Positions 42,454-59,941 of a stretch of DNA of 64,000 nucleotides are shown here, piece after piece; position 1 is the first letter of the stretch; every line of letters starts with the position of its first letter. Both the position numbers and the translations under genes were made by a program. The notes beneath the pieces were generated by a model, which worked only from the letters and a program-made list of their open reading frames with translations, searched no databases and was not told where the DNA came from. Source of the stretch: an uncultured bacterium (GTDB lineage Bacteria > Oederibacteriota > Oederibacteriia > Oederibacteriales > Oederibacteriaceae); NCBI GenBank assembly GCA_965112635.1, contig OZ218778.1, forward strand, positions 243,666 to 307,665, in the 5' to 3' direction.

Positions 42454-42849
42454 CTAGACACAGACTGTTTCCCCAATACCCAGCAGGTCTTTGACCTGAT
42501 CGATAAAACTCCTATTATCTATGGGCTTGGAAATATAGGAGTCAAACCCGGCTGCCCATATCTTTTCCTGTTCGTCTCTCATAGCCAGGGCAGTCAGGGC
42601 CACGACCTTCACGCCCGCGGTCCTTTGCTCACCCCGGATCCGCTTAAAAATGGTAAAGCCGTCCACCTCCGGCAGATTGATATCCAGCAGGACGAGGTCG
42701 GGGACACAGCTTTCCAGCACCCGGAAGCACTCCTCCGCGTTGAACGCCTTCAGCACCCTGAGCCCCTGCATTTCCAGCAGGGCCTCGGCAAGCCTCATAT
42801 TCGCTTCATCATCCTCTACCATCAATACTGTTTTGCTTTGCGTGAACAT
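42454..42849 (-). CDS. single-domain response regulator (receiver only)
   Basis: 131-aa CheY-like receiver (LMVEDDE, LLDINLPEVDG, YISKP). Confidence 0.8.
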   Translation of the reverse strand: MFTQSKTVLMVEDDEANMRLAEALLEMQGLRVLKAFNAEECFRVLESCVPDLVLLDINLPEVDGFTIFKRIRGEQRTAGVKVVALTALAMRDEQEKIWAAGFDSYISKPIDNRSFIDQVKDLLGIGETVCV

Positions 42850-45022
42850 GAACTCCTCCTTGTAGGATCAAAATTCTTTCCGCAGTTTCCGTGCCGCAAA
42901 CTTCTCCCGGTGCCGGCTGCGGCCTGACTGCGCTGAGATCCGGTAAAGCTAAATAAAACCGGGAACCCTTGTCTTTGCCCTTGCTCTCGCACCACAACCG
43001 GCCTTTCTGCATATCCGCTATTTTCTTGGAAAGCGCCAGGCCCAGCCCCGTGCCTCCATACTGGCGGTTGAGGCCGCCCTGGACCTGTTCAAATTCATTA
43101 AATATCCTGAGCTTGTCTTTTTCTTCGATACCGATGCCCGTATCCTCAACGCAGATGCTTATCTCCCCGTTGTTTCCGCCCGCGGTCAGGCGGATCTCCC
43201 CGCCTTCCGGGGTGAATTTGACCGCGTTGGAGAGCAGGTTATTGACCACCTGCTTTATCATGCGTTCATCCGCATAAACAACGCCCGCTTCCCTGGCCAC
43301 CTGCAAAGAAACTTTGATCCTCTTTTTCTGGATCTTATCCGTCACCATCATCAGACTGGACTCCAGGAGCTTTCTGAGATCCACCTCGCTCGCCTCCGAG
43401 GTCACTTTGCCGGTCTCTATCTTGTTCAGGTCCAGAATATCGTTGATCAGGGAAAGCAGATGCTTGCCGCTATCGTAGATATTTAGGGCATACTCGGACT
43501 GCTTAGCGGTCAGCGGCCCGACATCGCCCGACTTCATCATGTCCGAAAACCCGATGATGGCATTAAGGGGAGTTCGTAATTCATGGGACATCGTGGCCAG
43601 GAAAGCCGACTTGGCCCGGTTGGCGGATTCGGCCGTTTCACGGCCCAGATTGGCCTCTTCAATTTTTTTGCTCAAGGTGATATCCCTGACCGTGGCCTGC
43701 AGGAATTGCTTACCCTCCAGTTCCATGCGGGTCAGAAGTACGGTAGCGGGGAAATCCTCGCCGTTTATCCGTTTGTGTGTCCACTCAAATAGGTTATTTC
43801 CCTCCCGCATCGCTTTTTCGATCATTTCCTTGGCCTTTTCGCCGGATGGCCGGCCGTCCGGCTGTTTTTCCGGGGATAACTTACCCGGTCTGTAGGAATT
43901 AAAATCCTTTGAGTCCTTTGCTCCGAACATCCTGACCGTTTCCGGATTTCCTGAGGTGAAATTCCAGTCAGGCGGCTTCAGGGTCATCAGGGCGTCGCTG
44001 GAATATTCAAATAGATAACGGTATCTTTCTTCGCTTTTTCTCAGGGATTCTTCCATGGTTCGGCGGGAGGTGGCGTCACGGAATATCCCCATCATATACT
44101 GCTTGCCTTCCAGTTCGATTTGGTGGGAACTGATATCCGCGTAAATAAGGGAGCCATCCTTTCGTTTAAAAGGCACATCTGTTTCCATCAAAACCTGGTT
44201 TTTGGGGCCTTTATCAAATCTTTCCGCGGCACTCCCAAAAGCCTGGGGAGGATGGATATCCCTGACGCCCATGCGAGTCAATTCCTCATGCCCGTAGGCC
44301 AGGAGTTGGCCCATGCTCTGGTTCGCGTCAAATATTTTCATGGTTTGGGGGTCCACCAGCATGATGCCGTCCGAGGCATGGTCAAAAATGGCCTTGAACT
44401 TGCCTTCCCCCAGGCTCAAGGCTTTGCTGGTCCTGTTCCGCTCGGTGAGGACCATCCTTTGGGCGATAAGAAAACCAATAAAGACGAAGAACCCGACCAC
44501 CCCAAAGACATTGTTCCGGGCCTGGATGTTTTTTTGCATCGTGGAAACGAACAGCGACCTGATAGTGTTCCTCAAGGTGAAAGCATTTTTGAATACTTCA
44601 TCGGCCTGCCGGGGACCCGGTTGTTCCAAAGTCCCTGGGGTGGCTGCGCCATATTGGACCGGCGTATCCTGGATCCACAGGGGGGACATACCGGACAGGG
44701 TGGCCTCAAAGTTTTTTTGGACTTTTTGCAGGAGCGCCTTGTCCTGGGCGCTGGTAAAACTTTTGAGGGCTGTAGCCAGCAGGCCCTCTAAAGTGCTGGT
44801 TTTTTTATCCCACTCGGTTTTTAGTTGCTGGCTGGGATACAGCAGGTACCTGGCCCTCAGGACGATCCTGGCCGAAACCGTGTTGCTCATTTCATCGGCG
44901 AGCTGGAGGTTCCGGCTGGCCAGGGTAATATCCCTCAGGGTCCAGGCCAGGGCCAGGAGCATGAGCACGACCCCTCCCGCATATATCCATCCATTGTCTT
45001 TCATCCATTTATCCATCCTCAT
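42809..45022 (-). CDS. membrane-anchored PAS sensor histidine kinase
   Basis: N-terminal TM, PAS domains, H-box SHELRTPLNAI, HATPase motifs. Confidence 0.8.
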   Translation of the reverse strand: MRMDKWMKDNGWIYAGGVVLMLLALAWTLRDITLASRNLQLADEMSNTVSARIVLRARYLLYPSQQLKTEWDKKTSTLEGLLATALKSFTSAQDKALLQKVQKNFEATLSGMSPLWIQDTPVQYGAATPGTLEQPGPRQADEVFKNAFTLRNTIRSLFVSTMQKNIQARNNVFGVVGFFVFIGFLIAQRMVLTERNRTSKALSLGEGKFKAIFDHASDGIMLVDPQTMKIFDANQSMGQLLAYGHEELTRMGVRDIHPPQAFGSAAERFDKGPKNQVLMETDVPFKRKDGSLIYADISSHQIELEGKQYMMGIFRDATSRRTMEESLRKSEERYRYLFEYSSDALMTLKPPDWNFTSGNPETVRMFGAKDSKDFNSYRPGKLSPEKQPDGRPSGEKAKEMIEKAMREGNNLFEWTHKRINGEDFPATVLLTRMELEGKQFLQATVRDITLSKKIEEANLGRETAESANRAKSAFLATMSHELRTPLNAIIGFSDMMKSGDVGPLTAKQSEYALNIYDSGKHLLSLINDILDLNKIETGKVTSEASEVDLRKLLESSLMMVTDKIQKKRIKVSLQVAREAGVVYADERMIKQVVNNLLSNAVKFTPEGGEIRLTAGGNNGEISICVEDTGIGIEEKDKLRIFNEFEQVQGGLNRQYGGTGLGLALSKKIADMQKGRLWCESKGKDKGSRFYLALPDLSAVRPQPAPGEVCGTETAERILILQGGVHVHAKQNSIDGRG

Positions 45023-45065
45023 ATTCCTGTCCCCCTTCCCAAAATAGCCATGACCCTTTGATGCA

Positions 45066-46631
45066 TCATTGGAATTCTTCCTTACCGGCCATCACCATCT
45101 GGAAGGCCTTGGCCTCTTCCCGGCGGCCTAAAGAAATCAGCGGTTTAACAAAGGAAAAAATGGTCTTTTTTTCACTGGCCGCAGCCAGGGGCAGGCTAAA
45201 ACTTATGGAATTGTCCCCCTTGGAGGGAAAATCCACCTTGATTTCGCCCTGATGCGACTCCACGATCCTCTTGGCTATGGCCAGCCCCAGGCCTATGCCC
45301 GGGATATCGCCCGCGCCCTCTTTGTCCACCTGATAAAAAGTGTCAAAGATCTTCTGCCGTTCCTCGCAGGGTATGCCGGGGCCGTTATCGCCCACAGAGA
45401 ACCTGACCAGGCCTTGCTCCTGCCTGGCCGTGAAAGTGAGCTTGACTATCTTTTGGTCGTTGAATTTCACGGCGTTCTCAATGAGGTTGCTCAACAGTAT
45501 CTCCAGCATCACCGGGCTGAGCCGCAGCCCCACCATGCTGCCCGGCAGGTCGAATGTGTATTCGATCTCTTTATCCGTATGCTTTTTGAGGATGGCCTTC
45601 ACGATTCCCTCTATCCGGTCCATATACACAGAGCCCTCTCCGACACCTTTGCCCCCGTAACGGGCCGCCGTGTCCACATTGACAAAATCCGTTATTTTTT
45701 CCATCACCTTTGAAAACTCGGCCAATCTTTTCATCGTGGCCTCTGCGGAGTCCCTGAGCCGGGTATTTTTCATGGCCACAAAGGCCTCTTTCATCTGGGC
45801 CAAATGGCCCAGGCTCAGGTTCAGGGGAGCATGCACTTTTTGGGCGATAAGGTTGAGAAAATTTGCTTTCCGGTGCTTTTCTCCCCTCTGTTCCGTCACG
45901 TCATGCAAAATGATGACCACGCTGGTTGTCCTGCCCTGGCTGTCCCTGATCACCCTGGAACTGAAACTAAGTATCAGCGGCCAGTAGGTGGGGAACTCGG
46001 GCCGCTCCAGGTCAAAATCAAGGTCGTCAATGACCAGGTCGGTCTTCAGCTCGCCTTCATAATGGACCTTAAAGGTCTGGTGCAGGCGGTCCAGCCAGTC
46101 CGGGGACGGCTCCACAAAGCTCAGCAGCTCCCGGGCCAGCTGGTTGGACCGGACGATCCTCAGGTCCGCGTCGCAGACGATCAACCCTTCACTGGCCCGC
46201 TCAATGACCTTTTCCAGCTTTTTCTTTTCATCCACCCGGGAGCGTTCATTGTGGAGCTGGAGGAGCGTCTTGACCTTGGCCAGCACTTCATTGATATCAA
46301 AAGGCTTGGAAATAAAATCATCGCATCCCGCCTCTATCCCGGAGATCCGGGCGCTGGTTTCGGCCAGCGCCGTGATCATCACCACGGGCAGCGTCTTAGT
46401 GCTTTCCGCGGCCCGGATCTTCCGCGTCACCTCGAAACCATCCATATCCGGCATCATCACGTCCAGCAGGACCAGGTCTATTTTTTCATAGGTGAGTTTC
46501 CTTAGGGCCTGCCCCCCGTTTTCCGCGGTGACGACCTCGTAACCCTTGGACTTGAACAAAGTGGCCAGGAGCTCCACATTAAGGGGCTCGTCGTCCACCA
46601 CCAAAATCGTGGTTTTTTCAACTATATTCAT
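45066..46631 (-). CDS. receiver-PAS-histidine-kinase-like fusion protein
   Basis: N-terminal receiver (ILVVDDEP, LLDVMMPDMDG), central PAS, C-terminal HATPase-like domain; ATG 46631 overlaps upstream stop (ATGA). Confidence 0.75.
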   Translation of the reverse strand: MNIVEKTTILVVDDEPLNVELLATLFKSKGYEVVTAENGGQALRKLTYEKIDLVLLDVMMPDMDGFEVTRKIRAAESTKTLPVVMITALAETSARISGIEAGCDDFISKPFDINEVLAKVKTLLQLHNERSRVDEKKKLEKVIERASEGLIVCDADLRIVRSNQLARELLSFVEPSPDWLDRLHQTFKVHYEGELKTDLVIDDLDFDLERPEFPTYWPLILSFSSRVIRDSQGRTTSVVIILHDVTEQRGEKHRKANFLNLIAQKVHAPLNLSLGHLAQMKEAFVAMKNTRLRDSAEATMKRLAEFSKVMEKITDFVNVDTAARYGGKGVGEGSVYMDRIEGIVKAILKKHTDKEIEYTFDLPGSMVGLRLSPVMLEILLSNLIENAVKFNDQKIVKLTFTARQEQGLVRFSVGDNGPGIPCEERQKIFDTFYQVDKEGAGDIPGIGLGLAIAKRIVESHQGEIKVDFPSKGDNSISFSLPLAAASEKKTIFSFVKPLISLGRREEAKAFQMVMAGKEEFQ

Positions 46632-48103
46632 TGCTTTTCCTTCTCCTGACAGCAAGTTGCCTCAAAAATACCGGCGAGCATCCGGCCTTTCTCGTCGGCA
46701 TCTCCCGGCTGGTAGCTTTTGCCCGATACCCCGGACCGGCCCACGGGCAGATGGATATAAAAAATGGTCCCCTGTTCCTGGGATGTTTTATAAAAGATAT
46801 GACCCTTGTGCGCTTCCACGATCTCCCGGCAGATGGACAGCCCCAGTCCCGCGGCCCGCTCCGCGGTTTTGGTGGTAAAGAACGGCTCAAATATCCTGCC
46901 GCGTATCTCCTCCGCGATGCCCGGACCCCTGTCCTTGACGCTGATTTGGACCTTGTCCTCGCCCAGATGGTCGGCCGCCAGCGAGGTCCTTATTTCTATG
47001 ATGCCATCCTTTTGAACGAGCGAGATGGCCTGGGCCGCGTTGTGGATGAGATTAAGGAAGACCTGCTGCATCTTCAGCTCATCGCAGCGGACCGGGGGCA
47101 GGTCCAAGGCCGGTTCAAAGACCAGTTTGATGCCGTGCATGGTCAGGATATTCTGGACGATCTGGATGCTCCGCCTCAGGCAAAGGTTGATGTCCAATGT
47201 CTCCAGGCCGGGCTCATTGTTCACGGACAGGCTGATGGTCCGCTTGACCATCACCTGGCACTGGGTCCCTTCGCGGATGATGTTGTCCGCGGCTAGCATC
47301 CTGCCCTCCGGGCCCAGGTATTCCTGCTGGAATTTTTCCGCCTCCCGGACCATCAGGGTCAGGGAATCATTGACGCTCTCGGCCATGCCGTGCAGTATTT
47401 CCCCCAGGGTGGCCATGCGCTGGGTGCGGTCCAGCCGGACCTGCGCCATCTTCACTTCCCTGGTCAGCTTCTCGCTGAGCTGGCGGCTGTTCTCGGACTG
47501 CTTCCTGAACCCGCGTTCCTGCTCCATCAGGAAGCTGTAGAAGATGGTCAGGACAAAGATAAAGGGGATGCGTATCAAAAAGGTCGTCTCCATCAGGCTC
47601 TGGCTCATGATGCCCGTGGAATGCAGGACCATCAGCGCGTACACGCCCGAGACGACCCCAGCGATCAGGAGGTTTTCCAGCAGGTTGCGCCCAATGGCCA
47701 CCATAAAGATAAGGAGGAAATAGGCCAGGTAAAGGTCGGTATCAAATTTACGGAGCAGGAGGATGGCCAGGGTGATGACAGCCGTGTCAAAAATGAACAG
47801 CACCAGGTTTTGCCAGGCCTGGTCAAAACGCGCCAGCCTGGAAACAGTCACCCAGATATTGGACGCGGCGTAGCAGGTCAGCAGAAGGGCCAGTAGAACC
47901 AAGTTCCAAAAATGCATTCCCCGGCCGGCGTAGATCATAAAAAGGGTGAGGGTCAGGAGCACCATCCAGCGGAGCATGAGGATGGCCCGCTTGGTACCCT
48001 GGCTGCCTTCCTGCTTCACGGTCATGCCTCGGAACAACTTAAGGGCCTGTTCACGGGCTCCATACAGGACACCCTTCAGCCGACTTGCCAAAACCTGTTC
48101 CAT
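46628..48103 (-). CDS. sensor histidine kinase with polytopic membrane N-terminal domain
   Basis: ~5 TM helices then HisKA/HATPase (NLIHNAAQA, DRGPGI, GLGLSI). Confidence 0.8.
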   Translation of the reverse strand: MEQVLASRLKGVLYGAREQALKLFRGMTVKQEGSQGTKRAILMLRWMVLLTLTLFMIYAGRGMHFWNLVLLALLLTCYAASNIWVTVSRLARFDQAWQNLVLFIFDTAVITLAILLLRKFDTDLYLAYFLLIFMVAIGRNLLENLLIAGVVSGVYALMVLHSTGIMSQSLMETTFLIRIPFIFVLTIFYSFLMEQERGFRKQSENSRQLSEKLTREVKMAQVRLDRTQRMATLGEILHGMAESVNDSLTLMVREAEKFQQEYLGPEGRMLAADNIIREGTQCQVMVKRTISLSVNNEPGLETLDINLCLRRSIQIVQNILTMHGIKLVFEPALDLPPVRCDELKMQQVFLNLIHNAAQAISLVQKDGIIEIRTSLAADHLGEDKVQISVKDRGPGIAEEIRGRIFEPFFTTKTAERAAGLGLSICREIVEAHKGHIFYKTSQEQGTIFYIHLPVGRSGVSGKSYQPGDADEKGRMLAGIFEATCCQEKEKQ

Positions 48104-48369
48104 ACTGCCTCCCCCTTCGCATGCGAATGGTTAACAACATAGTCAACACTATCATTTGCGGGATAAAGGCAGAAGGAGCCAGGGCTGTAAATACATTGAT
48201 TTTTAAAGGGTAATTAGCTGTCCTGGAGCAGGAGATAATTGGAGTATTGTTGAGAAAAAGCTATTTCATACCTCATTTCAGCAAGTACCCCTTTTTGTCC
48301 ACTTGATGAAATGAGCCTACCACCCCATTTTCTCTGTTCAATGTTGTTTCTCTAGTTCAGGGTTCTGAC

Positions 48370-49950
48370 TGGGGAACGGGGAAGGGGGATTGTTAAACAG
48401 CTGGTTGCTCAGGCATACAGGGCTTTGTGGACCGCGGCGAGCATGGTTTCGGACTCGTAGGGCTTGCCCAGGAACCGGTAACCCAGCTTGTCCAATTCGG
48501 GCAGTTCTATCCTGTCGTCCAGATAGCCGCTGCAGACCAGCACCTTGATGCCGGGGTTCTGCCTGCTGACCTCCTCCGCGAGCTGTCTGCCGTCCATGCC
48601 TGGCAGGATCATATCCGTAAAAAGCAGGTTGAATTTTTTCTTTTCTTCTTTAAAAGAGATGAGGGCCTCCTCTGCGTTCTGTGCGGGAAACACAATATAA
48701 CCATGCTTCTGGAGGATGACCGTGCTCAGGGCCAGGTTTTCCGGCTGGTCTTCCACCAGCAATATCCTTTCTCCGGTCCCCCGGCCGTACTCCAGCGCTA
48801 TTTTTTTTGACTCCCTGGGTTCCTCGCTCTTTCTGGTGTCCATAGGGAGCCACACCTTGAACTCCGTGCCCTGACCCGGCTGGCTGGACACATTGATCCA
48901 CCCGTTATGCTGTTTCACGATGCCATAGGTGACCGACAGCCCCAGTCCCGTGCCCTTGCCACGGGTCTTGGTGGTAAAAAAGGGCTCAAATATTTTTGCC
49001 ATGGTTATCGGCTCCATACCCTTCCCGTTGTCTTTGACCGTCAGGCACACGAACTCGCCAACCCGGGCTTCGGATATTTCCAGGGCCTGGCTCTCGCTTA
49101 GAGTGCAGTTGCAGGTCTGGATGAGCAATTGGCCGCCCTGGGTTATGGCATCCCGGGCATTGACGCAAAGGTTCATCAGGACCTGTTCCATCTGGGTCTG
49201 GTCGGCGTAGATGGCCTGGAGGCCCTTATCCAGCTCCAGTTTCAAAGTAACCTTTTCACCCACTGCCTCTTTGAGCATCTTTTCCATATCCTGGACCACT
49301 AGATTCAAGGAAAGGGACTTGGGGGACAGGTTTTGTTTGCGGCTGAACGCCAGCAGCTGACCGGTCAGGGCAGCGGCTTTTTTACCCGCGCCCTTTACTT
49401 CCTCCAGATAGGATTGGACAGCATCCCGGTCATCTTTTTTGATGAGGGCCAGGTCAGAGTAACCGATAATGACATTAAGCAGGTTGTTGAAATCATGGGC
49501 AATGCCTCCGGCCATCTCCCCGATAGAGGCCAATTTTTGGGCCTGCATCAGGCCCTGTTTCAGGAGTTTAAATTCCGTCACATTGGAGGCTATGGTGGAG
49601 AAACCGATGGCCTGGCCATTTTGTCCTTGAAGCGGGGTTATGGTCAAAGCCACCTGGATGGTCTCCCCGTTCTTGCGCAGGTGCTCGGTCTCAAAATGGG
49701 CAATTTTATGGCCTGCGTTGAGTTGCTCTGTAAGCATCCGCATCTCTTCTTTGCGTTCCGCGGGAACCAGTTGTTCCGCAGACATTCCAATGGCTTCCGC
49801 TGGGGAATAACCATAAATCTTTTCCGCACCCCTGTTCCAGCTCGTGATGAGGTTCGCCAAATCCCTGCTGAATATCGCGTTATCCGAGGATTCCACGATC
49901 GTCGCCAGCAGGCGGTCTTTTTCTTCCGCTTTCCGGCTCTCGGTGATGTC
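48370..49950. repeat. paralogous segment (3' part of hybrid kinase plus ~40 bp of 3' flank) duplicated at ~53130-54710; bounds approximate
   Basis: long near-identical protein stretches ([61 protein letters not shown]) and shared downstream GGGAAGGGGGATTGTTAAACAGCTGG. Confidence 0.6.
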
Positions 49951-51081
49951 CCTGGAAACGGCGAGTAAACCTATGATCTTTTTGTGTTCCGCCCCTTCCC
50001 AGATGGGGGTTTTGACTTCCCAGAACACCCGGCCATTCTCCGAGACGACCTCCTCGGTGGTCTGTTCGCCCTGTAAAACCCGGGCCTCAATGGCCTTGAT
50101 CTGCTCGGCCGCGCCAGTGGGCATCAGTTCGGAGTCCTGACGGCCTATCAATCCCTCCAGGGAACAGCGGAACAGCTCCAGGGTCGCCTTGTTGCCGTAA
50201 ACATACCGGGACTGGGCGTCCTTGAAATAGACATAAACGGGTATCTGGTCCATGATCTCCCGGAAACGCTGGGCTTCGTCCAGAGCCCTGAGCAGTTTCA
50301 ACTCCTCCTGCTTGCGTTCGGTGATGTCCTCGGATATGCCCAGCAAATATTTCGTGACCCCATCCTCCCCCCGAATGCAAACCTTGCGGGTATGAAGAAT
50401 CCGTTGGCCTTTCTTGGCTGTCAGGATAAATTCTTCCGGGATATCCAGCATCCCCGCTTCGCCATCCAGCACCTCACGGTCTTTGCTCATGAAATTGGCC
50501 GCCTGTTCAGGAGGGAAAAGGTCCAGGTTATTCCTGCCCAGCAGGTCTTTGCGGTCATATCCCAGGAGTTCCTCGCCCGCGCGGTTGAATATGACGAAAC
50601 GCAGGTCTTTGGACTCTTTGAGGAATATCATGAGCGGAATATTTTCTACGACGGATGCGAAAAGGCTTTTCGATTCCCTCAACTCCCTCTCCGACCGCTT
50701 GCGCTCTATGGCATATCTCAATGAACGGATCAGCAGGGAACCGTCAAATTTCCCTTTAACCAGATAATCTTCCGCGCCCGTATGAAGGGAATCCACAACT
50801 AGTGCTTCATCATCCAGCCCGGTGATCACCACCACCGCGGTCCCGGGGGCATTGCCCAGGATGCTTTTCAGCGTAGTGATCCCCTGACTGTCCGGCAAAT
50901 TAAGGTCTAGTATGAGGCCGTCAAACGAACTCTTGCGTAACTGATCGACCGCGTTATCCAGCGTGCCTACAGTTGATATTTCATACCGGCCGACACCGGC
51001 TTTTTTGACCATTTCCTGGATGAGCCGAGCATCGCCCGGATTGTCCTCGACCAATAATAGTTTTATCTTTGGCTCCTCCAT
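48409..51081 (-). CDS. hybrid sensor histidine kinase (REC, 3x PAS, HisKA, HATPase, REC)
   Basis: 890-aa ORF; N-terminal receiver [11 protein letters not shown]-box [11 protein letters not shown]-terminal receiver [10 protein letters not shown]. Confidence 0.85.
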   Translation of the reverse strand: MEEPKIKLLLVEDNPGDARLIQEMVKKAGVGRYEISTVGTLDNAVDQLRKSSFDGLILDLNLPDSQGITTLKSILGNAPGTAVVVITGLDDEALVVDSLHTGAEDYLVKGKFDGSLLIRSLRYAIERKRSERELRESKSLFASVVENIPLMIFLKESKDLRFVIFNRAGEELLGYDRKDLLGRNNLDLFPPEQAANFMSKDREVLDGEAGMLDIPEEFILTAKKGQRILHTRKVCIRGEDGVTKYLLGISEDITERKQEELKLLRALDEAQRFREIMDQIPVYVYFKDAQSRYVYGNKATLELFRCSLEGLIGRQDSELMPTGAAEQIKAIEARVLQGEQTTEEVVSENGRVFWEVKTPIWEGAEHKKIIGLLAVSRDITESRKAEEKDRLLATIVESSDNAIFSRDLANLITSWNRGAEKIYGYSPAEAIGMSAEQLVPAERKEEMRMLTEQLNAGHKIAHFETEHLRKNGETIQVALTITPLQGQNGQAIGFSTIASNVTEFKLLKQGLMQAQKLASIGEMAGGIAHDFNNLLNVIIGYSDLALIKKDDRDAVQSYLEEVKGAGKKAAALTGQLLAFSRKQNLSPKSLSLNLVVQDMEKMLKEAVGEKVTLKLELDKGLQAIYADQTQMEQVLMNLCVNARDAITQGGQLLIQTCNCTLSESQALEISEARVGEFVCLTVKDNGKGMEPITMAKIFEPFFTTKTRGKGTGLGLSVTYGIVKQHNGWINVSSQPGQGTEFKVWLPMDTRKSEEPRESKKIALEYGRGTGERILLVEDQPENLALSTVILQKHGYIVFPAQNAEEALISFKEEKKKFNLLFTDMILPGMDGRQLAEEVSRQNPGIKVLVCSGYLDDRIELPELDKLGYRFLGKPYESETMLAAVHKALYA

Positions 51082-51094
51082 TTTTTCCTGCGTC

Positions 51095-51544
51095 CTATCC
51101 TTGGAGAGGAAGCTTAACCACGGTCAGCCAGAAATCCTCTATAATTTTAACCACTTTATAAAACTGATTAAAATCCAAAGGTTTGGTGATATAGGCATTG
51201 GCATGAAGATTGTAGCTTTTTATAACATCCTCGTCCGCCTTGGAAACGGTCAAAACCACCACGGGAATGCTTTTCAAGGCCTCATCGGATTTGACCTCTT
51301 TTAGAACTTCCCTGCCGTTCTTCTTGGGGAGATTCAGGTCAAGCAAGACAATGTCCGGGCGGGATAATTTTTCGTATTTTCCCTGCTTCCTAAGATAAGC
51401 CATAGCTTCCACCCCATCCCCTACAACATTCAAAGCATTCCTTATCTTGGCATCCTTGAACGCCTCCTGGATAAGCCGAATATCACCCGGATTGTCCTCC
51501 ACCAGCAGTATTTCTATCGGCTTTCCTATATTATTCATTTCCAT
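51095..51544 (-). CDS. single-domain response regulator of the phytochrome-associated (Rcp-like) CheY type
   Basis: 149-aa receiver ([27 protein letters not shown]). Confidence 0.85.
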
Positions 51545-51559
51545 TTTCCCCTCCTCCTA

Positions 51560-52655
51560 TTAATCTTTTAAAGTGAAATAAAAAACTGTGCCCTTTCCAT
51601 ATTCGGACTCATACCATATCTTCCCCCCATTACGCTCCACGATACGCTTGCAAACAGCCAGGCCCACCCCGTTACCGGGGTACTTGACCCCTGCCAACCG
51701 CTGAAATAGGGAAAAAACCCTATCCTTATACTGGGGTTCTATTCCGATACCATTGTCCTTGATGGAAAAAACAACCTCTTTTCCCTTTTTCCCCGCAGAA
51801 AGATGAACACACGGTGCCTGTTCTCCGCAAAACTTGATGGAGTTGGCAATGAGATTCTGCAAAACCTGAAGAAGCTGGGAGGGGTCGGCCATGACCGCTG
51901 GCAAAGGATCTGTGGGTAATGACCGCTTTATTCTCTAATATGGCCAATTTCAGATTGGCCAGAGCGCCTTTAAGGACCTCCTCGGTATCCACCAGCTCCA
52001 GGGGTTTAGCCTGGGACTCTACCCGTGAGAATAATAACAGACCGTCAATGAGTCCCTGCATGCGGGTAGCTCCGTCTACGGCGAAATTGATGAATTCATC
52101 AGCATCCTGGTCCAGTTTGCCTTTATAGCGTTGCTCTATCAATTGAAGATAACTTACGACCATCCGGAGCGGCTCCTGCAGGTCGTGGGAGGCGATATTG
52201 GCGAACTGCTGGAGGTCTTCATTGCTGCTTTTTAGTTTTAAGGCATATTTCCTAATCTCCTCTTCCTCTTTGTGCCTGGTGATGTCCTCGATGGCCAGAA
52301 GAATGATATGCTCTTTTCCTAATGCTCTCTGAATTTGCCTTGCATTCAAAAGTAAGATGCGCCGGCCAATGGTGTCAAAATCGTGCTCCACCTCAAAATT
52401 GTCAAAGGAGGTCTTTTGAGGAAGGATGTTTTCCAGCAGTTCCCTTAGCTGGGGAATATTCCACTGTTTGTTACCCAGGTCATAGATTAACTGCCCCACC
52501 GTCTCTGCCGGGTTTACCTTAAAAAATTCATAGAAGGAACGGCTGGCGGAGATGACCCTGAGGTCCTGGTCCAGAACGACCAAGGGTTCGCGAATGGTAT
52601 TGATAATGCTTTCGGCGTATTCCTGGGATTCTACTGCTGTTTTTTCGCTAAACAT
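51560..52655 (-). pseudogene. PAS sensor histidine kinase, frame broken near 51905-51925 between HisKA and HATPase
   Basis: ORF 51726-52655 carries PAS and H-box (SHDLQEPLR); ORF 51560-51904 carries N-box/HATPase (QVLQNLIANSIKF, DNGIGI) in another frame. Confidence 0.65.
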
Positions 52656-52712
52656 TTCTTATCTCCTTGCTGGCTGCCTGGCCGCGTTCCCTGGCCCTTT
52701 CAGGCCAAGGCT

Positions 52713-52895
52713 TTACCTATGGAGTGAAAATACTACTGAGCTTGTTTTTGCAGGAGTTCGGATTGTAGGATGGTGATGTCTGTGGGTGGTGCGGCTCGAG
52801 GTGAAATTATTCTTGCAGGTATGGTTGAGTCCCTCAAAAATACTTCCCTTGAGGCTGGGACATTTCATATCACAGGTACAGTTATCTTTGGTCAT
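52713..52895 (-). pseudogene. internally deleted remnant of an FNR-like regulator gene (paralog of 56524-57219)
   Basis: N-terminal 27 codons (MTKDNCTCDMKCPSLKGSIFEGLNHTC) match the intact paralog; last ~12 codons in another frame (ILQSELLQKQAQ, stop at 52734) match its C-terminus. Confidence 0.55.
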
Positions 52896-52901
52896 TTTCT
52901 A

Positions 52902-52915
52902 CCCCCCCCCCCCCC
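52902..52915. repeat. C14 homopolymer (G14 on the minus strand) followed by A7, 6 nt upstream of the remnant ATG
   Basis: read directly. Confidence 0.9.
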
Positions 52916-53129
52916 GAAAAAAAGGGTGGAGGTTTCTACAATTAAGTTTAATCCTCTTCCTCTGCATTAGGAAGATATAAAAAAATTATCTTTTGCAAAT
53001 GGATATTGGGCCATTAACCGTCTTAAGAAAGCTGAGCAATATCAAGGGGTTTGCAACAATAGCGCCCCAAACAAGGGTTTTATTGGGTAACATGGATCAT
53101 AATTCAAAAATCCTCCTCTACCTCCCCCT

Positions 53130-54710
53130 TTTCTGTAAAGGGGGAAGGGGGATTGTTAAACAGCTGGCTGCTCAGGAATACAGGGCTTTTTGGACCGCCG
53201 CCAGCATGGTTTCGGATTCGTAAGGTTTGGCTAGGAACTGGAAACCTTGGTTGGTGAGTTCGTTTTGCTCCACGATCTTATCCAGATAACCGCTGGTCAC
53301 CAGCACCCGGATGTTAGGATTCTCTTTTCGGATTTCCTTGATAAGTGCATTCCCATCCATGCCGGGCAGAATGATGTCGGTAAAAAGCAATTTAAACCCT
53401 TTTTTCTCTTCCTTGAACGCCCTGAGGGCGTCTTCTGCATTCTCAGCGGGAAAAACAGTATAACCTTGTTCTTCGAGTATCTTGGTGGCCAGGGCCAGAT
53501 TGTCCGGCTGGTCCTCCACCAAAAGTATTTTTTCACCAGCGCCCCGGCCGTGCTCCAGGGCTATTTTCTTTTGTAGCTTGGGCTCCTGGTCTTTGCGTTC
53601 ATCCCTGGGGAACCATATCCTGAACTCTGTGCCTTTCCCAGGCTGACTGGACACATTGATCCACCCGTTATGCTGTTTCACGATGCCATAGGTGACGGAC
53701 AGGCCCAGGCCCGTGCCCTTGCCCCTGCTCTTGGTGGTAAAAAAGGGGTCAAATATTTTGGTCAGGGTCATGAAATTCATTCCTATACCGTTGTCCTTGA
53801 CTGTCAGGACTATAAAATCCCCGGGACGGGCTTCACGGATAACCTGCGCTTCTAACTGGCCAAGGGACACTGCCTGGGTCTTGATAAGCAGTTGGCCTCC
53901 CTGAGGCATGGCGTCGCGGGCGTTGACGCACAGGTTCATCAGGACCTGCCCTAACTGGTTCTGGTCCGCATATATTCTTTCTTGTCCTTTACTCAAGGCC
54001 AGCGTAAGCACGACGTGTTCACCCACCGCCTCTTTGAGTATTTTTTCCATACCCAGGACCACTTCATTCAGGGATAAGGACTGGAGGGACTGGTTCTGTT
54101 TGCGGCTGAAGGCCAGCAATTGTCCGGTCAGGGAGGCGGCTTTTATGCCCGCGCCTTTTATCTCCTCCAGGTAGTTCCTGGCGGCAGTCCAGTCATTGGC
54201 TTTCATCAGGGCCAAGTCAGAATAGCCGATGATGACGTTGAGCAGGTTGTTGAAATCATGGGCAATGCCTCCGGCCAATTCCCCGACAGAGGCCATTTTC
54301 TGGGTCTGGACCAAATCGCTCTGCAGGCGCCGGAATTCGGTGATATCGGTGGCGATGGTGGACCCGCCGACGACCTGGCCGTTCTTGTCGTAGATAGGCG
54401 AAAGGGCCAGCATCACCTGGACCCGGGTCCCATTTTTATGCAGGCGCTCTGTCTCAAAGCGCAGTATGGGTTGGCCAAGGTTAAGTTTTTTGGTGATCTC
54501 CAGCATCTCTTCCCTGCGTTCCGGAGGGACCAATTTTTCCGCGGACATGCCGATAGCCTCCTGGACGGAATACCCATATATCTTTTCCGCGCCCTTGTTC
54601 CAGCTCAAAATTATTTGATGATGGTCCCTGCTGAATATCGCGTCACCTGAGGATTCCGCGATGGTGGCCAGCAAGCGGTTTTTTTGTTCGGCTTCCCGGC
54701 GCTGGGTAAT
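53130..54710. repeat. second copy of the paralogous hybrid-kinase segment (see 48370-49950); bounds approximate
   Basis: same shared protein stretches and 3' flank. Confidence 0.6.
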
Positions 54711-56507
54711 ATCTTGGACATAGTTCACAAAATAAAGGATAACTCCCGTGGAGGGCTTGCGCACTGCAGCCACAGACACATTGGCCCAAATAATCCGGCC
54801 GTCCTTGCGTAAATACCGCTTTTCTAGGATGGCATTGTCAGCCTCACCCTCCGTCATGCTCCTCATGGCTTTTAACCCTATTTCATAATCTTCCGGATGA
54901 GTGATGCTGTTAAAGGTTTTGCCTAAAAGCTCATTCTCACCAAACCCCAGCATTTCGTTCATGGCCCGGTTGACCCTGAGATACCGGCCTTCAATATCCA
55001 CTAGGCTGACCCCGACCACGGCGTTTTCAAAAGAGGTCCTGAAAAGCTCCTCGCTCTCGGCCAAGGCCTTTTCAGCTTGCCGGCGTTCAGTCACATCGCT
55101 CATAAAATTGAGCGTAGCCAGCCGGCCCTGCCATTCGATCCTGACGGCGTTTATCTGCACCCAGCGCAGCTGGCCCGAAGCGGTCAGGATGCGGAACTCA
55201 TATATTTTTTCCAGGTCCTCCCCAGCCAGCCGTCTCAGGTGGTTTGCCGCGACCATGGCCCGGTCTTCCGGATAGATGAAATCAGTGAAAGGATGGCGGG
55301 ATATCTCTTCGGGTGGATATCCCAATTCCCGGACTGTGGCCTTGTTCACGAAAACCAGTTTGTTGTCCTGGGCCACCATGATCATTTCCTGGGAATTTTC
55401 CACGACCTGGCGGTATCTTTTCTCGCTCTCCCGCAGTGCTTCTGAAGCTTTCCTGAACTCGGTAATATCCCTTGCCGAGCTGAGCGTCCCGGTGATGCGC
55501 CCCTCCTCATCATGGACAAGGGAGTTATGAAAAGCCAATAAACGCCTGTCTCCTTGTTTGGTGACCACAAAATTCTCAAAATATTCAACTGGCTTGATAG
55601 CGCCGGAGATGATCTGGTCAAAAACAGAATGGACAGCCTGATACTCCTCGGGAGTAACGCAGGTCTTGAACCAGTCCTTGCCCAGGAGCTCTCCCTCCTG
55701 GTAACCGAGGAGTTCGTGACCCTTACGGTTGAGGAGCACGACCTGGCCCTGGGTGTCCAGCACCACCATCAATACCTGGGCAACTTCAAGATATTCGGAG
55801 GCTTTTCTTCTTTCGGCCCTTAAATACGCCACATCCTTCTTGCGCAGGGTCACATCGTTGGCCATGGATATATTTAACTTTCGCCCATCCGCGGTCCGGC
55901 CCAAGGCAGTAGATTGAAATTCCCAAACCCGGGTCTTCCCGCTTTTCGTCTTGACTGTGAACTCTCCCTCATTGTACCGGATGCCATCGTCCAGAGAAAA
56001 AAACAGATTTCTCCGGGACTGGACTTTGTCCTTTTTCAGCCCATAGGCAAGCTCAAGCCAAGCATCTAGTGTAGGTATGTCCGCCCGGCTATATCCGGTC
56101 AGTTCTTCCCAAACCTGGTTGACCCGGATGACCTCGCCATCCTCCGCGTAGATCATGATGGGAAACGGTGACAGCTGTATCACTTTTTCCCGCTGTTCCA
56201 GGCTGAGCCTCTCGGCTTTTTCTATGTGCTGGAGCAAAACGACCACGATAAACATGGAAAGGGATAAGGCAAAACGCCTCCCGGTCTCCAGAGGGTCAAT
56301 CGTGCTGGGAACATGGTTTACGAGCATCTGATACAGGGGGGAAAACGCAGGTAAAAGATCAAAACAAGGGCCAAACCCATGAAGGACCAGGAGACTTTCC
56401 TTTTGGACTTGGGCAGGCCCAGGAGGACCATCACCATGGCTATGAGGGCAATGATGGCCGAGGCCACATTGACCACGGTCAAAAACATGGCTGTCCCTCC
56501 TTTTCAA
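53172..56507 (-). CDS. hybrid multi-PAS sensor histidine kinase with C-terminal receiver; N-terminus uncertain
   Basis: multiple PAS, H-box [10 protein letters not shown], HATPase, receiver [10 protein letters not shown]; a 56-aa 2-TM ORF with strong RBS (56318-56488) lies in a neighbouring frame across a C6 run. Confidence 0.8.
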
Positions 56508-56523
56508 TGTATGGTGACGATGA

Positions 56524-57219
56524 TTACTGGGCTTCCTTTTGCAGGAGTTCGGACTGCAGGACTGTGATCCTTTTGCCTACCAGGGAAATGATCTTTTTTT
56601 TCTCCAGTACTTTCAGGGCCCGGATGGCGGTCTCCTGGGCCGTGTCCGCCAGCTCGGCCAGCTCGGTCCGGGAAAGCTGGATGTTGAGCGAACCGTCCTT
56701 GGCCGGAGCATAGTCCCGGGCCAGCTTGCACAGCACCTCGGCCACCCGGTTCTTGACCGGCTTTTGGACCGCGCTTTCCAGCCGGGACAGGGTGTCGCCC
56801 ACCTCGGCTCCCATCCGGCTCATGATGTTCTCTCCCAGCCGGGGATCCAGCCCCAAGGCCGCGAATAAAATGGAGCGTTCAATGAAGCAGACCTGGGTTT
56901 CCTCCAGGGTTTCCGCAGAGGTGAAATTGACCTTGCCCGACATCAGCGCGGACACACCCAGCGCATCACACGGTCCGGCGATCTGGACGATCTGCTCGCG
57001 GTCCAGGCGGCCGGTTTTGTAGAGTTTTACTTTTCCGGAACGGATGTGATAAATGCCGTAGGGTTTATTGCCCTCATAAAAAAGGTTTTGTTTGGGTTTG
57101 TAGGTGTTGGTGGTGCGGCCCTTGGCGATATAATCCAGGCATTCATGGTTAAGCCCCTCGAATATACTTCCCTTGTAGCCGGGACATTTGGCGTCACAGG
57201 TCCAGTTTTGATTGACCAT
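56524..57219 (-). CDS. Crp/Fnr-family regulator with FNR-like cysteine pattern
   Basis: cNMP-binding-like fold plus C-terminal HTH (LSRTELAELADTAQETAIRALK); N-terminal C8-x3-C12-x14-C27 plus internal Cys (GPCDALG); AAGGAAG RBS before ATG 57219. Confidence 0.8.
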   Translation of the reverse strand: MVNQNWTCDAKCPGYKGSIFEGLNHECLDYIAKGRTTNTYKPKQNLFYEGNKPYGIYHIRSGKVKLYKTGRLDREQIVQIAGPCDALGVSALMSGKVNFTSAETLEETQVCFIERSILFAALGLDPRLGENIMSRMGAEVGDTLSRLESAVQKPVKNRVAEVLCKLARDYAPAKDGSLNIQLSRTELAELADTAQETAIRALKVLEKKKIISLVGKRITVLQSELLQKEAQ

Positions 57220-57302
57220 CCACGCTTCCTTTCTCCCCTGCCTCAATGTCTACATATAAAGTATAGTCCTTATAACCTGATTTCTGACAATGAAATGGCT
57301 GG

Positions 57303-57698
57303 CTAATTCGATCCGGGCAGGAGGTCATTGAGGGTCTTGAGAAACTGAGTTATATCCATGGGTTTAGAGATATAGCCGTCAAAGGAGTACGATTGGACCT
57401 CTTCCCGGTAATGGGGATTGCCCATGCCTGTGAAACTGACGACCTTGACGGCTTTGAAAGCCTCATTCTGCCGGATCATTTTGAAAATCTCAAATCCGTC
57501 AATGTCAGGAAGCCCGATATCCAGCAGGACAATATGTGGAACTATGGTGTCCAGGATTTCTATGGCCTCCTCACCTGTCGCGGCCTGATGGACCTGCCAG
57601 CCGTCCATTTTTAGGATCTCCACGGATATCTTCAGATTGGTCGGATGGTCCTCTACGACCAAAATGATCTTGGTTTTTACCTTTTCGCCATTAGCCAA
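57303..57698 (-). CDS. single-domain response regulator (receiver only)
   Basis: 131-aa CheY-like receiver (ILVVEDHPTN, LLDIGLPDIDG, YISKP). Confidence 0.8.
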   Translation of the reverse strand: MANGEKVKTKIILVVEDHPTNLKISVEILKMDGWQVHQAATGEEAIEILDTIVPHIVLLDIGLPDIDGFEIFKMIRQNEAFKAVKVVSFTGMGNPHYREEVQSYSFDGYISKPMDITQFLKTLNDLLPGSN

Positions 57699-57866
57699 TG
57701 TTTACTCCCCGTTGCCATGGATTGGTTTCTCGAATTTTTGTACCACTAATCTACCTTATAATTGGAAATCCCGTCAAGTTCCAGTTCAGTTGGATTGATG
57801 AGATATCGGGCAGGGCAATCCTTTTGATAATGATTCTTTCCCAACCGCCAGGGCCATCACAAATTT

Positions 57867-58883
57867 TCAGTCAGCACTCTGGTCGCCTATCTTGTGCTTG
57901 GCTATCTCGCAAAAACACCGCGTATGATTGGCGCACTGCGGGTCATACACCATGGCTTTTTTCAGATTAGAGACGGCGGCCTTGTAAAGCTCCGGGTCGC
58001 CGGTGAGGATACCCAAGCTCATCTGGGTGAGGCCGCAAAGACGATACGCCGCCACGTATTGCGGATCAAGCTCAATGGCTTTGTTAAAACAGGAGACGGC
58101 TCCCTTGATGTCATTGATCTGCCATAAATAAAATCCCCTATTATAATATTTCTCCGCCTCTCCCACGCTGATGCCGTCATTGGGGATCTTATAGCCCATG
58201 AGTTCCACATCTTTCTGGAGATGGATCAGGGAAATAACGACCACCGGATTGGATGAGTCTATTTTGGCCAGAGCCTCCGAAGCGCAATGCCGGACCTGCT
58301 GATCCGGGTCACTGAGCAGCTGGAACAGGGCAGGCATGGCGTCTTTATCAGAGGGATCGATGTTTCCCAGGACACCCGCGGCACAGCAGCGGACATTCCC
58401 ATCCGAGTCCTTGAGAAGATCCAGGAGCGGCGAGAGGATTTCTTTGGTTAGCGGTTTGATCTGTTGCAGGGCTTCCGCGGCCTTGGAACGGACCTCGGCA
58501 TCCTGGTCCTTGAGCATTCCCAGAAGAACAGGCACGTCTTTTTCACCGACTTTATTCCAATCCAAGTTCCCGGGTTTAGCGCTTGGAGCTACGGATTCCG
58601 CGGACTTTAAGGACCGCAGATCATTTTCTAGTTTTATTTTATCCGCCCTGACAGCCTCCGCAACCCGTTGTTTAAGTTCTGTATCTATACTTACTTTATC
58701 CTGCTCCATGGCCTTCAGATCCGCCTTGAGCGTGGCCTGGTCCTGCGCGATGGTTAGTTCGAGCTGATCGACCATGGGGTTGGCTGCCACAGGCAGGGTA
58801 GCCATTATGGTCATAAGCACGGCGATGCAAAAAAATACTATCAGTGCAGGGCATGAGTTTTTTGGGACAGCCAAGTTTTCCAA
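57867..58883 (-). CDS. secreted/membrane-anchored HEAT-repeat plus TPR-repeat protein
   Basis: three HEAT-like repeats (DAEVRSKAAEAL, DGNVRCCAAGVL, DQQVRHCASEAL) then TPR-like region; start uncertain (TTG 58883 with GGAGG, or GTG 58931). Confidence 0.6.
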   Translation of the reverse strand: MENLAVPKNSCPALIVFFCIAVLMTIMATLPVAANPMVDQLELTIAQDQATLKADLKAMEQDKVSIDTELKQRVAEAVRADKIKLENDLRSLKSAESVAPSAKPGNLDWNKVGEKDVPVLLGMLKDQDAEVRSKAAEALQQIKPLTKEILSPLLDLLKDSDGNVRCCAAGVLGNIDPSDKDAMPALFQLLSDPDQQVRHCASEALAKIDSSNPVVVISLIHLQKDVELMGYKIPNDGISVGEAEKYYNRGFYLWQINDIKGAVSCFNKAIELDPQYVAAYRLCGLTQMSLGILTGDPELYKAAVSNLKKAMVYDPQCANHTRCFCEIAKHKIGDQSAD

Positions 58884-59056
58884 GGTCGTACACCTCCGCT
58901 TTCCTCTAGTGCAAGTGTACCCCTGGACCAAAAAATCCCTTATGACGCAGGAAGACTGGCCGATTGATATTTGGATACGGAAAAGCTGACGCAGGTCAAT
59001 AGATGAAGGGTGTGTTTTTCAGGATTTTAAGCAATTTTCCGTAAAAAACTTTGGGG

Positions 59057-59941
59057 TTAGGGCCTTTTGGAGCCCCGGGCTAGCATCAGGGAAGGATTAA
59101 AATTCTCGTAAAGAGCAATATTTTTGCCTGATTTTTTAGCCTGGGCCACCAGTTGGCTGGCCTGCCTGAAGAGGTCCTGGCTTTCCGGAACATCCTCTCC
59201 CACGCTGACCAAACCGCAGCTGAAAGTGATCTTCCAGTTGTTGTATTCCATGGCCTTGTTCAGGTTCTGGTGGACCCTGTTCCAAAATTCTTTGGCGCCG
59301 GTTCCATCGATATTCACCAGCAGGACCCCGAACTCGTCCCCGCCCAGCCGGGCCACCTCGTCGCTTTCCCTGATATGCACTTTCAAAGTTTCAGCGACTT
59401 TGGCCAGCACCTCGTCGCCTGCCCTATGGCCCAGTGTGTGGTTTAAGTCCGCGAAATCATCCAGGTCAATGACCGCCAAGGTGTAGGGCGTATTTTTGTG
59501 CTGGCGTCTGTTCTCCTCGCGGTCCATGGCCTCATACAATCCCTGCCGGTTCAGGGTTTGGGTCAGATGGTCGGTCTTGGTAAGGACGATCTCGCGTTCC
59601 AGGGTTCCGCGGATGCGGCCGAGAAGGAGTGCGATAAGGGTGAAAACGGCGAGGTCCACTCCGCAATTCCAATAAGCAATGGTTTGTTGGGAATAGAGTT
59701 GATGGATGAAGTTCGTCCACACCGCAATGACTGCGCCCAAGGCCGTGCCAGCCCACCATCCCACGGTCCAGGTGGCCAACCCTACTGGAAAAATATAGAA
59801 AAGGAACAGGCTCGCTTCTTTGCCGGTAAGGTCATCTACATAAGTGATGATCAGGATGAGGAAAAGGCAGATGGCCAGGCGCATGGCATAGGGCAGTCTT
59901 TCCATCCAGCCGAACAGATTTTTTGGGTCAAAGTTTTGCAA
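59057..59941 (-). CDS. membrane-anchored diguanylate cyclase (GGDEF domain)
   Basis: N-terminal TM helices; GGDEF motif in RLGGDEFGVLL. Confidence 0.8.
   Translation of the reverse strand: MQNFDPKNLFGWMERLPYAMRLAICLFLILIITYVDDLTGKEASLFLFYIFPVGLATWTVGWWAGTALGAVIAVWTNFIHQLYSQQTIAYWNCGVDLAVFTLIALLLGRIRGTLEREIVLTKTDHLTQTLNRQGLYEAMDREENRRQHKNTPYTLAVIDLDDFADLNHTLGHRAGDEVLAKVAETLKVHIRESDEVARLGGDEFGVLLVNIDGTGAKEFWNRVHQNLNKAMEYNNWKITFSCGLVSVGEDVPESQDLFRQASQLVAQAKKSGKNIALYENFNPSLMLARGSKRP

Follow-up and report, generated by a model that had tools for sequence, protein, structure and literature searches.

The 64,000-nucleotide (nt) window analysed here, from an uncultured bacterium of the Oederibacteriaceae (contig OZ218778.1, positions 243,666 to 307,665), carries on its minus strand two hybrid histidine kinase genes, A and B, which end in the same 514-codon module. 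The most probable origin of this pair, in our view, is an old, lineage-specific tandem duplication of a cassette of about 4.3 kb that was partly rebuilt later. Besides the kinase module, the cassette would have taken in a crp/fnr-family gene and the end of a response regulator gene, both of which have left recognizable remnants between the two kinases. The elements of the repeat itself are as follows.

48409..51081, minus strand: kinase A, a hybrid histidine kinase of 890 aa with REC, three PAS, HisKA (DHp), HATPase_c (CA) and REC (open reading frame, Pfam, translation)
48409..49950, minus strand: shared module in A, residues 377-890, comprising the inter-PAS linker, last PAS, DHp, CA and REC (ungapped match to 53172-54713)
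53172..56507, minus strand: kinase B, a hybrid histidine kinase with an N-terminal region, five PAS, HisKA, HATPase_c and REC (open reading frame, Pfam, proteins P0002 and P0240)
53172..54713, minus strand: shared module in B, residues 598-1111 (same match as the module in A)
48375..48408, minus strand: conserved 34-nt 3' flank of A (32/34 identical to 53138-53171)

The two kinases share an anciently duplicated module

To delimit the repeat, the window was searched against itself by self-BLAST, with a repeat finder and by ungapped register comparison. Self-BLAST matched 48375-49950 to 53138-54713 over 1595 columns with 73.8% identity (E = 0). All pieces returned by the repeat finder, with segment identities of 72-83%, lie at a constant offset of 4763 nt, and the match therefore runs without net indels; compared position by position without gaps, the two stretches agree at 1144 of 1576 nt (72.6%). 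Both edges are sharp, identity falling from ~83-87% to ~25% within a single 60-nt step. The repeat consists of the final 514 codons of both hybrid kinases (67.7% amino acid identity, 72.1% nt identity for the coding part) and 34 nt past the stop codon. This agrees in position and extent with the original prediction, made from the sequence by eye, of a repeat of about 500 residues with some 40 bp of 3' flank. Its description of the shared parts as long near-identical stretches was overstated at this level of protein identity: unbroken protein identity extends over at most 30 residues, at the G2 box, and next over 23, at the H box. The three longest exact nt runs (50, 37 and 27 nt) fall mostly in the same two boxes, and the 37-nt H-box run is also matched at 89% in an unrelated kinase gene at 19956-19992, so that the exact runs reflect motif constraint rather than recency.

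To date the event, synonymous and nonsynonymous divergence (dS and dN) were estimated by Nei-Gojobori counting over the 514 codons. The proportions of synonymous and nonsynonymous differences were pS = 0.55 and pN = 0.20, giving dS ~1.0, dN ~0.23 and dN/dS ~0.23. Third codon positions are 58% identical, and conserved residues use the same codon in 59% of cases, as against 40% expected at saturation from the genes' own codon usage; the module copies have thus gone most of the way to synonymous saturation. A dS of ~1.0 is of the order of the divergence between enterobacterial genera. The duplication is old, not recent, and by its dN/dS ratio the shared core has been kept under purifying selection. 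No rate asymmetry between copies A and B was detected against five outgroups (chi2 < 1.6).

These values bear directly on the claim of a recent segmental duplication, with nearly identical copies and a risk of collapse in assembly. The exact runs of 50, 37 and 27 nt, the 30-residue protein run and the 94% identical flank might each suggest recency, but the runs lie in H and G2 motifs, one of them with its 89% match elsewhere, and a recent origin does not fit 72.6% nt identity, 58% identity at third positions, dS ~1.0 and 68% protein identity. Low nt identity despite protein similarity, which the original prediction had itself named as the sign of an old event, is what the 72.6% amounts to. As two assemblies moreover agree on both copies, we consider a recent duplication extremely unlikely.

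The second assembly (ENA contig_13894, 387 kb; L001 below) covers 38409-61081 (22.7 kb) without a single substitution. It differs by two single-base indels and has both kinase copies, along with every remnant described below, in place. One indel is an extra A at window position 51911 (L001 9172), where the window reads CCCACAGATCC and the second assembly CCCACGATCC; it splits the kinase gene at 51560-52655, which is intact in L001 (364 aa), into open reading frames at 51726-52655 and 51560-51904, and stems either from an error in sequencing or from genuine variation between strains. The other is a run of C6 in the window versus C7 in the second assembly at ~56335 (L001 4747), in the 5' region of kinase B, which shifts the reading frame over roughly the first 57 codons. 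Because of this difference kinase B is called with 1111 aa (open reading frame of the window, TTG start), 1051 aa (P0002) or 1105 aa (P0240), and its start codon is uncertain. The protein of kinase A is found exactly in public data (P0001). Single-base indels between assemblies, of the long-read type and one of them in a homopolymer, are what could be held to point to an artefact, that is, a chimeric or falsely duplicated contig. Such an origin deserves almost no weight: contig_13894 reproduces the 22.7 kb around both copies, and copies that differ at 27% of positions can be neither collapsed nor created by assemblers. The collapse once feared for this locus is dispelled by the same two facts. 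For annotation, A and B are distinct genes and not an assembly problem, and the two indels are to be kept in mind, since they alter the gene calls of the 51560-52655 kinase and of the start of kinase B.

The duplicated unit extends beyond the kinase module

Homology between the two copies is not confined to the kinases. The features on which the larger unit rests, and the two genes that now interrupt it, are listed here.

56524..57219, minus strand: crpB, an intact crp/fnr-family regulator of 231 aa directly upstream of kinase B (Pfam, L001 gene call, translation)
57303..57698, minus strand: single-domain response regulator of 131 aa, preceding crpB (Pfam Response_reg)
52734..52895, minus strand: crp/fnr pseudogene remnant, the first ~38 codons plus the last 14 codons in another frame (direct repeats, blastn, tblastn)
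52935..52958, minus strand: patch preceding the crp remnant, with its homologous counterpart at 57249-57271 upstream of crpB (alignment)
53009..53052, minus strand: response-regulator 3'-end remnant with one frameshift (match to 57323-57365)
51560..52655, minus strand: kinase gene with PAS, HisKA and HATPase domains, located in the part of copy 2 that lacks homology (Pfam, L001)
51095..51544, minus strand: stand-alone response regulator of 149 aa, located in the same part of copy 2 (Pfam; 39% identical to the N-terminal REC of A)

The product of crpB has clear cNMP_binding (E = 3e-14) and HTH_Crp_2 (E = 1e-13) domains. The remnant matches it at 85/115 nt (74%) at the start and 37/44 nt (84%) at the end, with 536 nt of the interior gone (blastn E = 3e-13, tblastn E = 6e-12); it has no gene call in L001, and the small open reading frame at 52734-52895 should be annotated as a pseudogene remnant. 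About 40 nt upstream of the remnant's ATG lies the 24-nt patch shared with the region upstream of crpB, which holds a TAAACT resembling a -10 box. Further upstream, 53009-53052 matches 57323-57365 at 34/44 nt (77%), and the local alignment scores 36, where the best of 300 shuffles scored 26; allowing for one frameshift, the translation is KPLDIAQ/FLKTVN, versus KPMDITQFLKTLN. The second copy of the unit begins with this fragment of the response regulator.

All homologous pieces keep the same order and strand, with identities of 72-84%. Their offsets are 4313 nt for the response-regulator end and the promoter patch, 4324 nt for the 5' part of crp, 3791 nt for its 3' part, where the 536-nt deletion accounts for the lower value, and 4763 nt for the module and flank. 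We take 4313 nt to be probably the original tandem period, and with this period the last ~36 codons of the response regulator (from ~57412) would have lain inside the duplicated unit. Since the pieces are co-linear, on the same strand, at shared offsets and similarly diverged, a single event that made all of them is preferred. The original prediction was thus right that the kinase module had been duplicated, while the unit it gave was too small, as the crp-family gene and the response-regulator end were also taken in.

Based on these observations, the cassette would have spanned the last ~36 codons of the response regulator, the crp/fnr gene, a PAS-rich hybrid kinase and the kinase terminator. 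After duplication the upstream copy, crpB plus kinase B, would have stayed whole. In the downstream copy the response-regulator fragment would have degraded and crp would have lost 536 nt of its interior, and the sequence from the crp stop codon up to the DIT linker (see below) would have been replaced, so that the copies now differ there. This would have left two hybrid kinases whose sensor arrays differ and which have the PAS-DHp-CA-REC core in common. The segment from the crp stop to the DIT linker is 972 nt longer in copy 2 and of unrelated sequence; it holds the 364-aa PAS kinase gene, the 149-aa response regulator and the REC-PAS-PAS head of A. Just past the two crp stop codons no homology was found (p = 0.55).

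Two side observations concern the crp genes. The N-terminal cysteines of the crpB product have the spacing C-x3-C-x14-C, which is kept in the remnant and differs from the C-x2-C-x5-C of classical FNR. A run of G14 on the minus strand at 52902-52915, the sole homopolymer of at least 10 nt in the 64 kb, sits at the expected ribosome-binding site of the crp remnant, where crpB has GGCAGGGGAGAAAGGAAG; its length is the same in both assemblies.

The N-terminal regions of A and B are unrelated

Upstream of the breakpoint A and B have no detectable relationship, and both have better relatives elsewhere. The N-terminal REC of A shares 69% of its residues with P0085, and the first PAS of A (50302-50721, residues 121-260) is 81-83% identical to PAS domains from several phyla; for its second PAS no relative above 31% was found. 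The upstream segments and PAS domains of kinase B are 43-55% identical to other proteins. Two different sensor arrays, REC-PAS-PAS in A versus an N-terminal region and four PAS in B, precede the shared module. Homology starts at the 'DIT(E/Q)' codons that end the preceding PAS domain, in the inter-PAS linker, and this DIT motif recurs at inter-PAS linkers of the retrieved homologues, so that microhomology for recombination is on offer there. The lack of any A-B relationship, the closer relatives elsewhere and the abrupt start at the DIT linker together indicate that one N-terminal region was replaced and did not diverge from a common sequence, presumably by recombination at the conserved linker. 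The earlier idea that the N-terminal sensing regions had simply diverged does not hold for sequences of this kind, unrelated to each other and each with closer relatives in other proteins (69% to P0085 in the case of the REC of A).

The same features raise the question of whether gene conversion or recombination copied the PAS-DHp-CA-REC-terminator part into a distinct kinase, the remnants then stemming from a separate event. The module edges are indeed sharp, one at a linker that offers microhomology and the other at a hairpin, the N-terminal regions are unrelated, and conservation is higher in the flank than in the coding part. But the remnants are co-linear with the module, on the same strand, at shared offsets and at a similar level of divergence (74-77%), for which one event is the simpler account, and synonymous divergence is nearly uniform along the module (runs test p = 0.52). 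We therefore regard this alternative as unlikely in comparison with a tandem duplication of the whole cassette. A mosaic of gene conversion within the module was also considered and rejected, as clustering is marginal (p = 0.045; runs p = 0.52) and the long exact runs lie in catalytic motifs.

Some further similarities were noted in this part of A. Relatives of its first PAS include P0023 (Ignavibacteriales), P0041 and P0102, the last of which has it twice; the domain is far more conserved than the rest of the proteins that carry it, and in sequence it weakly resembles the haem PAS domains of EcDOS and FixL (E ~7e-4). The receiver patch at 50998-51067, in the N-terminal REC of A, is 76% identical over 70 nt to 51449-51518 in the stand-alone regulator (39% at the protein level). 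A receiver domain may have been duplicated locally in a further, older event between A and 51095-51544.

The duplication appears specific to this lineage

Relatives were sought in 5.8 billion protein clusters and 185,579 species genomes (one per species). Among the protein clusters A has B as its best hit and B has A, and the next matches have 30-45% identity. For the whole module the best outside protein reaches 44% and the best match in the species genomes 45%. The same holds section by section: A and B are 61% identical in the PAS section (best outsiders 46-48%), 72% in the DHp-CA section (54-56%) and 68% in the REC section (44%). These comparisons point to a duplication within this genome that is specific to its lineage. 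That the two genes arose by segmental duplication, as originally proposed, is thus borne out by mutual best hits in each section, a distance of 4.8 kb on the same strand and co-linear homologous flanks. Pairing of crp and kinase is not a feature of distant homologues: a Crp homologue was present at 1 of 80 loci, and there it was not adjacent. The operon is accordingly specific to this lineage.

Independent horizontal acquisition of two related neighbouring kinases would be in keeping with the frequent transfer of histidine kinases (PMC1630713) and with the 81-83% identity of A's first PAS to domains from other phyla. However, no donor-like relative was found, the best outside matches standing at 44-45% versus 68% between A and B, and the copies also share a non-coding flank and remnants of neighbouring genes, which makes this origin very unlikely.

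Several points do weigh against the tandem duplication of a cassette in the form proposed here. At 94% identity the flank exceeds what a single event would lead one to expect for non-coding DNA of this age. The head-to-tail junction, which should lie between 53053 and 53118, has no clear homology left; the response-regulator remnant is just 44 nt long, and the match to the terminator 3' arm just 17 nt (p ~0.03). Synonymous identity along the module is mildly clustered (codon-identity permutation, maximum-window p = 0.045). Finally, no related genome that shows an intermediate state or dates the event independently was found in the protein database, species genomes, named cluster members or metagenome contigs.

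In B the 3' flank forms part of a predicted terminator-like hairpin

Two further elements, which bear on the conservation of the flank, lie 3' of the kinase genes.

53095..53171, minus strand: terminator-like hairpin after kinase B (RNA fold)
48317..48333, minus strand: putative homologue in A of the terminator 3' arm, AGAAAATGGGGTGGTAG (15/17 in local alignment)

The 34-nt flank, 94% identical with an exact run of 27 nt, is more conserved than predicted from third-position identity (binomial P = 3e-6) or from overall identity (P = 0.003). Given this excess, the flank at least needs selection or later gene conversion. In the predicted fold the flank of B pairs with an adjacent G-rich arm: the conserved 53138-53171 forms the 5' arm and 53118-53134 the 3' arm, followed by UUUUU. 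The hairpin is G+C-rich and imperfect (-28.5 kcal/mol for 77 nt; z = -1.9 in a 131-nt context) and is not listed by a simple terminator scanner, yet with its U-run and with the 34 nt as 5' arm it looks like an intrinsic terminator. In A, the 15/17 match to the 3' arm (shuffle p ~0.03) is displaced by a loop with ~38 extra nt, and the predicted hairpin is weak (-15.9 kcal/mol, z = +1.5) and has no clear U-run. A C to G mismatch of the flank in A faces a G to U change in the 3' arm of A. The duplication carried the putative terminator along. Since the arms in A stand about 40 nt further apart and fold weakly while the 5' arm is nevertheless 94% conserved, terminator function alone is not obviously the cause of this conservation.

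Hairpin constraint, a later short conversion tract and another cis function are candidates for what has kept the flank. That the flank acts as a functional cis element, either an RNA derived from the 3' untranslated region or terminator or a C-rich motif resembling an anti-Shine-Dalgarno sequence, or else is subject to ongoing short-tract gene conversion, is a possibility that we rate as unlikely. If it were a cis element, expression of the paralogous kinases and of the downstream genes would be coupled. In this connection, the minimum free energy fold of 48085-48415 (minus strand) pairs UCCCCCUUC of the flank with GAAGGGGGA, ~280 nt away, where the next gene (46628-48103) has its ribosome-binding site; this long-range fold is not significantly better than those of shuffled sequences (z = -1.4). 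No further copy of the flank motif was found in the window, and none in 80 related loci or JGI metagenome contigs.

Other candidates at or near the flank were tried and rejected. An antisense open reading frame that starts in the flank stays open for 57 codons in A and 39 in B, so that the lengths differ. Matches to the sigma-54 promoter consensus number 25 in the window against 36 expected, and scans with sigma-70 and terminator consensus sequences gave counts at shuffle level. No known RNA family reaches its gathering score in the whole window. A match to alpha_tmRNA at 52875-53111 (minus strand) scores 22 bits against a gathering score of 50 (E = 0.0012 for 5.5 kb) and was taken as chance; it overlaps the response-regulator remnant and the G14 stretch, and ARAGORN finds no tmRNA or tRNA in the window.

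Both kinases retain the motifs of active hybrid kinases

Pfam detects HisKA in both kinases, which do not differ at any of the 23 residues surrounding the phospho-accepting His. The H box reads AHDFNN in both and aligns with the H boxes of the outgroups. HATPase_c is matched with E ~1e-24 in both kinases, with NLCVNARDA, DNGxGM, FxPFFTTK and GKGTGLGLS present as N, G1, F and G2 boxes. The C-terminal Response_reg domains carry LLVEDQ, LLFTD(M/I)ILPGMDG, VLV(C/T)SGY and (G/A)KPY in aligned columns, so that the acidic pair, the phospho-accepting Asp, the Ser and the Lys of the receiver are kept in A and B. Both hybrid kinases are thus apparently functional: from the intact motifs and dN/dS of ~0.23, autophosphorylation and His-to-Asp phosphotransfer are predicted for each, and the identity of the 23 residues around the phospho-accepting His suggests that they may feed similar downstream partners.

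Among solved structures the module is best matched by the DHp-CA part of CckA (PDB 5idj, E = 1.6e-53; 5idm, E = 2.1e-34), with which it has in common the H box sequence AHDFNN and a hybrid architecture that ends in a REC. Owing to this resemblance of the DHp-CA core, many homologues are labelled 'CckA' in the sources. CckA has an N-terminal membrane anchor followed by two PAS domains, and works in the context of its partners ChpT and CtrA. This layout is not matched here, as A opens with a REC and has three PAS while B has five PAS; no ChpT/CtrA context was seen, and no Hpt-like gene was found among the called neighbours (crp, REC, other kinases, GGDEF). No named protein exceeds ~45-55% identity. 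The likeness is to a kinase subfamily and not to the cell-cycle kinase itself.

The locus as a case of kinase family expansion

Lineage-specific expansion is the main source of new histidine kinases in signalling-rich genomes (Alm, Huang & Arkin 2006, PMC1630713); it typically goes along with shuffling of the upstream sensor domains, and hybrid kinases are especially prone to it (PMC1630713). A and B conform to this pattern in being closest to each other, in retaining the core and in differing in their sensor domains. What sets them apart is that the traces of the event can still be read, namely the tandem period, the decayed neighbours, the breakpoint in a linker and the shared terminator; and the event is old by synonymous divergence, yet 'recent' by the operational definition of that paper (PMC1630713). 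As in other cases of tandem duplication followed by pseudogenization, the copies are co-linear and on the same strand, one crp is intact while the other is deleted and frameshifted, and a truncated gene fragment stands at the unit boundary; the difference is that the kinase of the decayed copy was rebuilt with another N-terminal half and remained under purifying selection. The locus is an ordinary kinase family expansion with domain shuffling, unusually legible. It shows how signalling-rich bacteria may build sensors, by duplicating a cassette, keeping the transmitter core and swapping the inputs at an inter-PAS linker, with a truncated response-regulator fragment, a gutted crp and a damaged terminator as readable by-products. 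Beyond annotation, we attach little significance to it.

Both kinases belong to a signalling island (42809-59941) with six histidine-kinase genes, four or five receivers, and Crp/Fnr, GGDEF and HEAT/TPR genes. The island is flanked by genes of an ordinary chromosomal kind, for an ABC transporter, an FGGY kinase and a DEAD helicase; further off lie genes for HypD/HypE, a TonB-dependent receptor and a beta-galactosidase.

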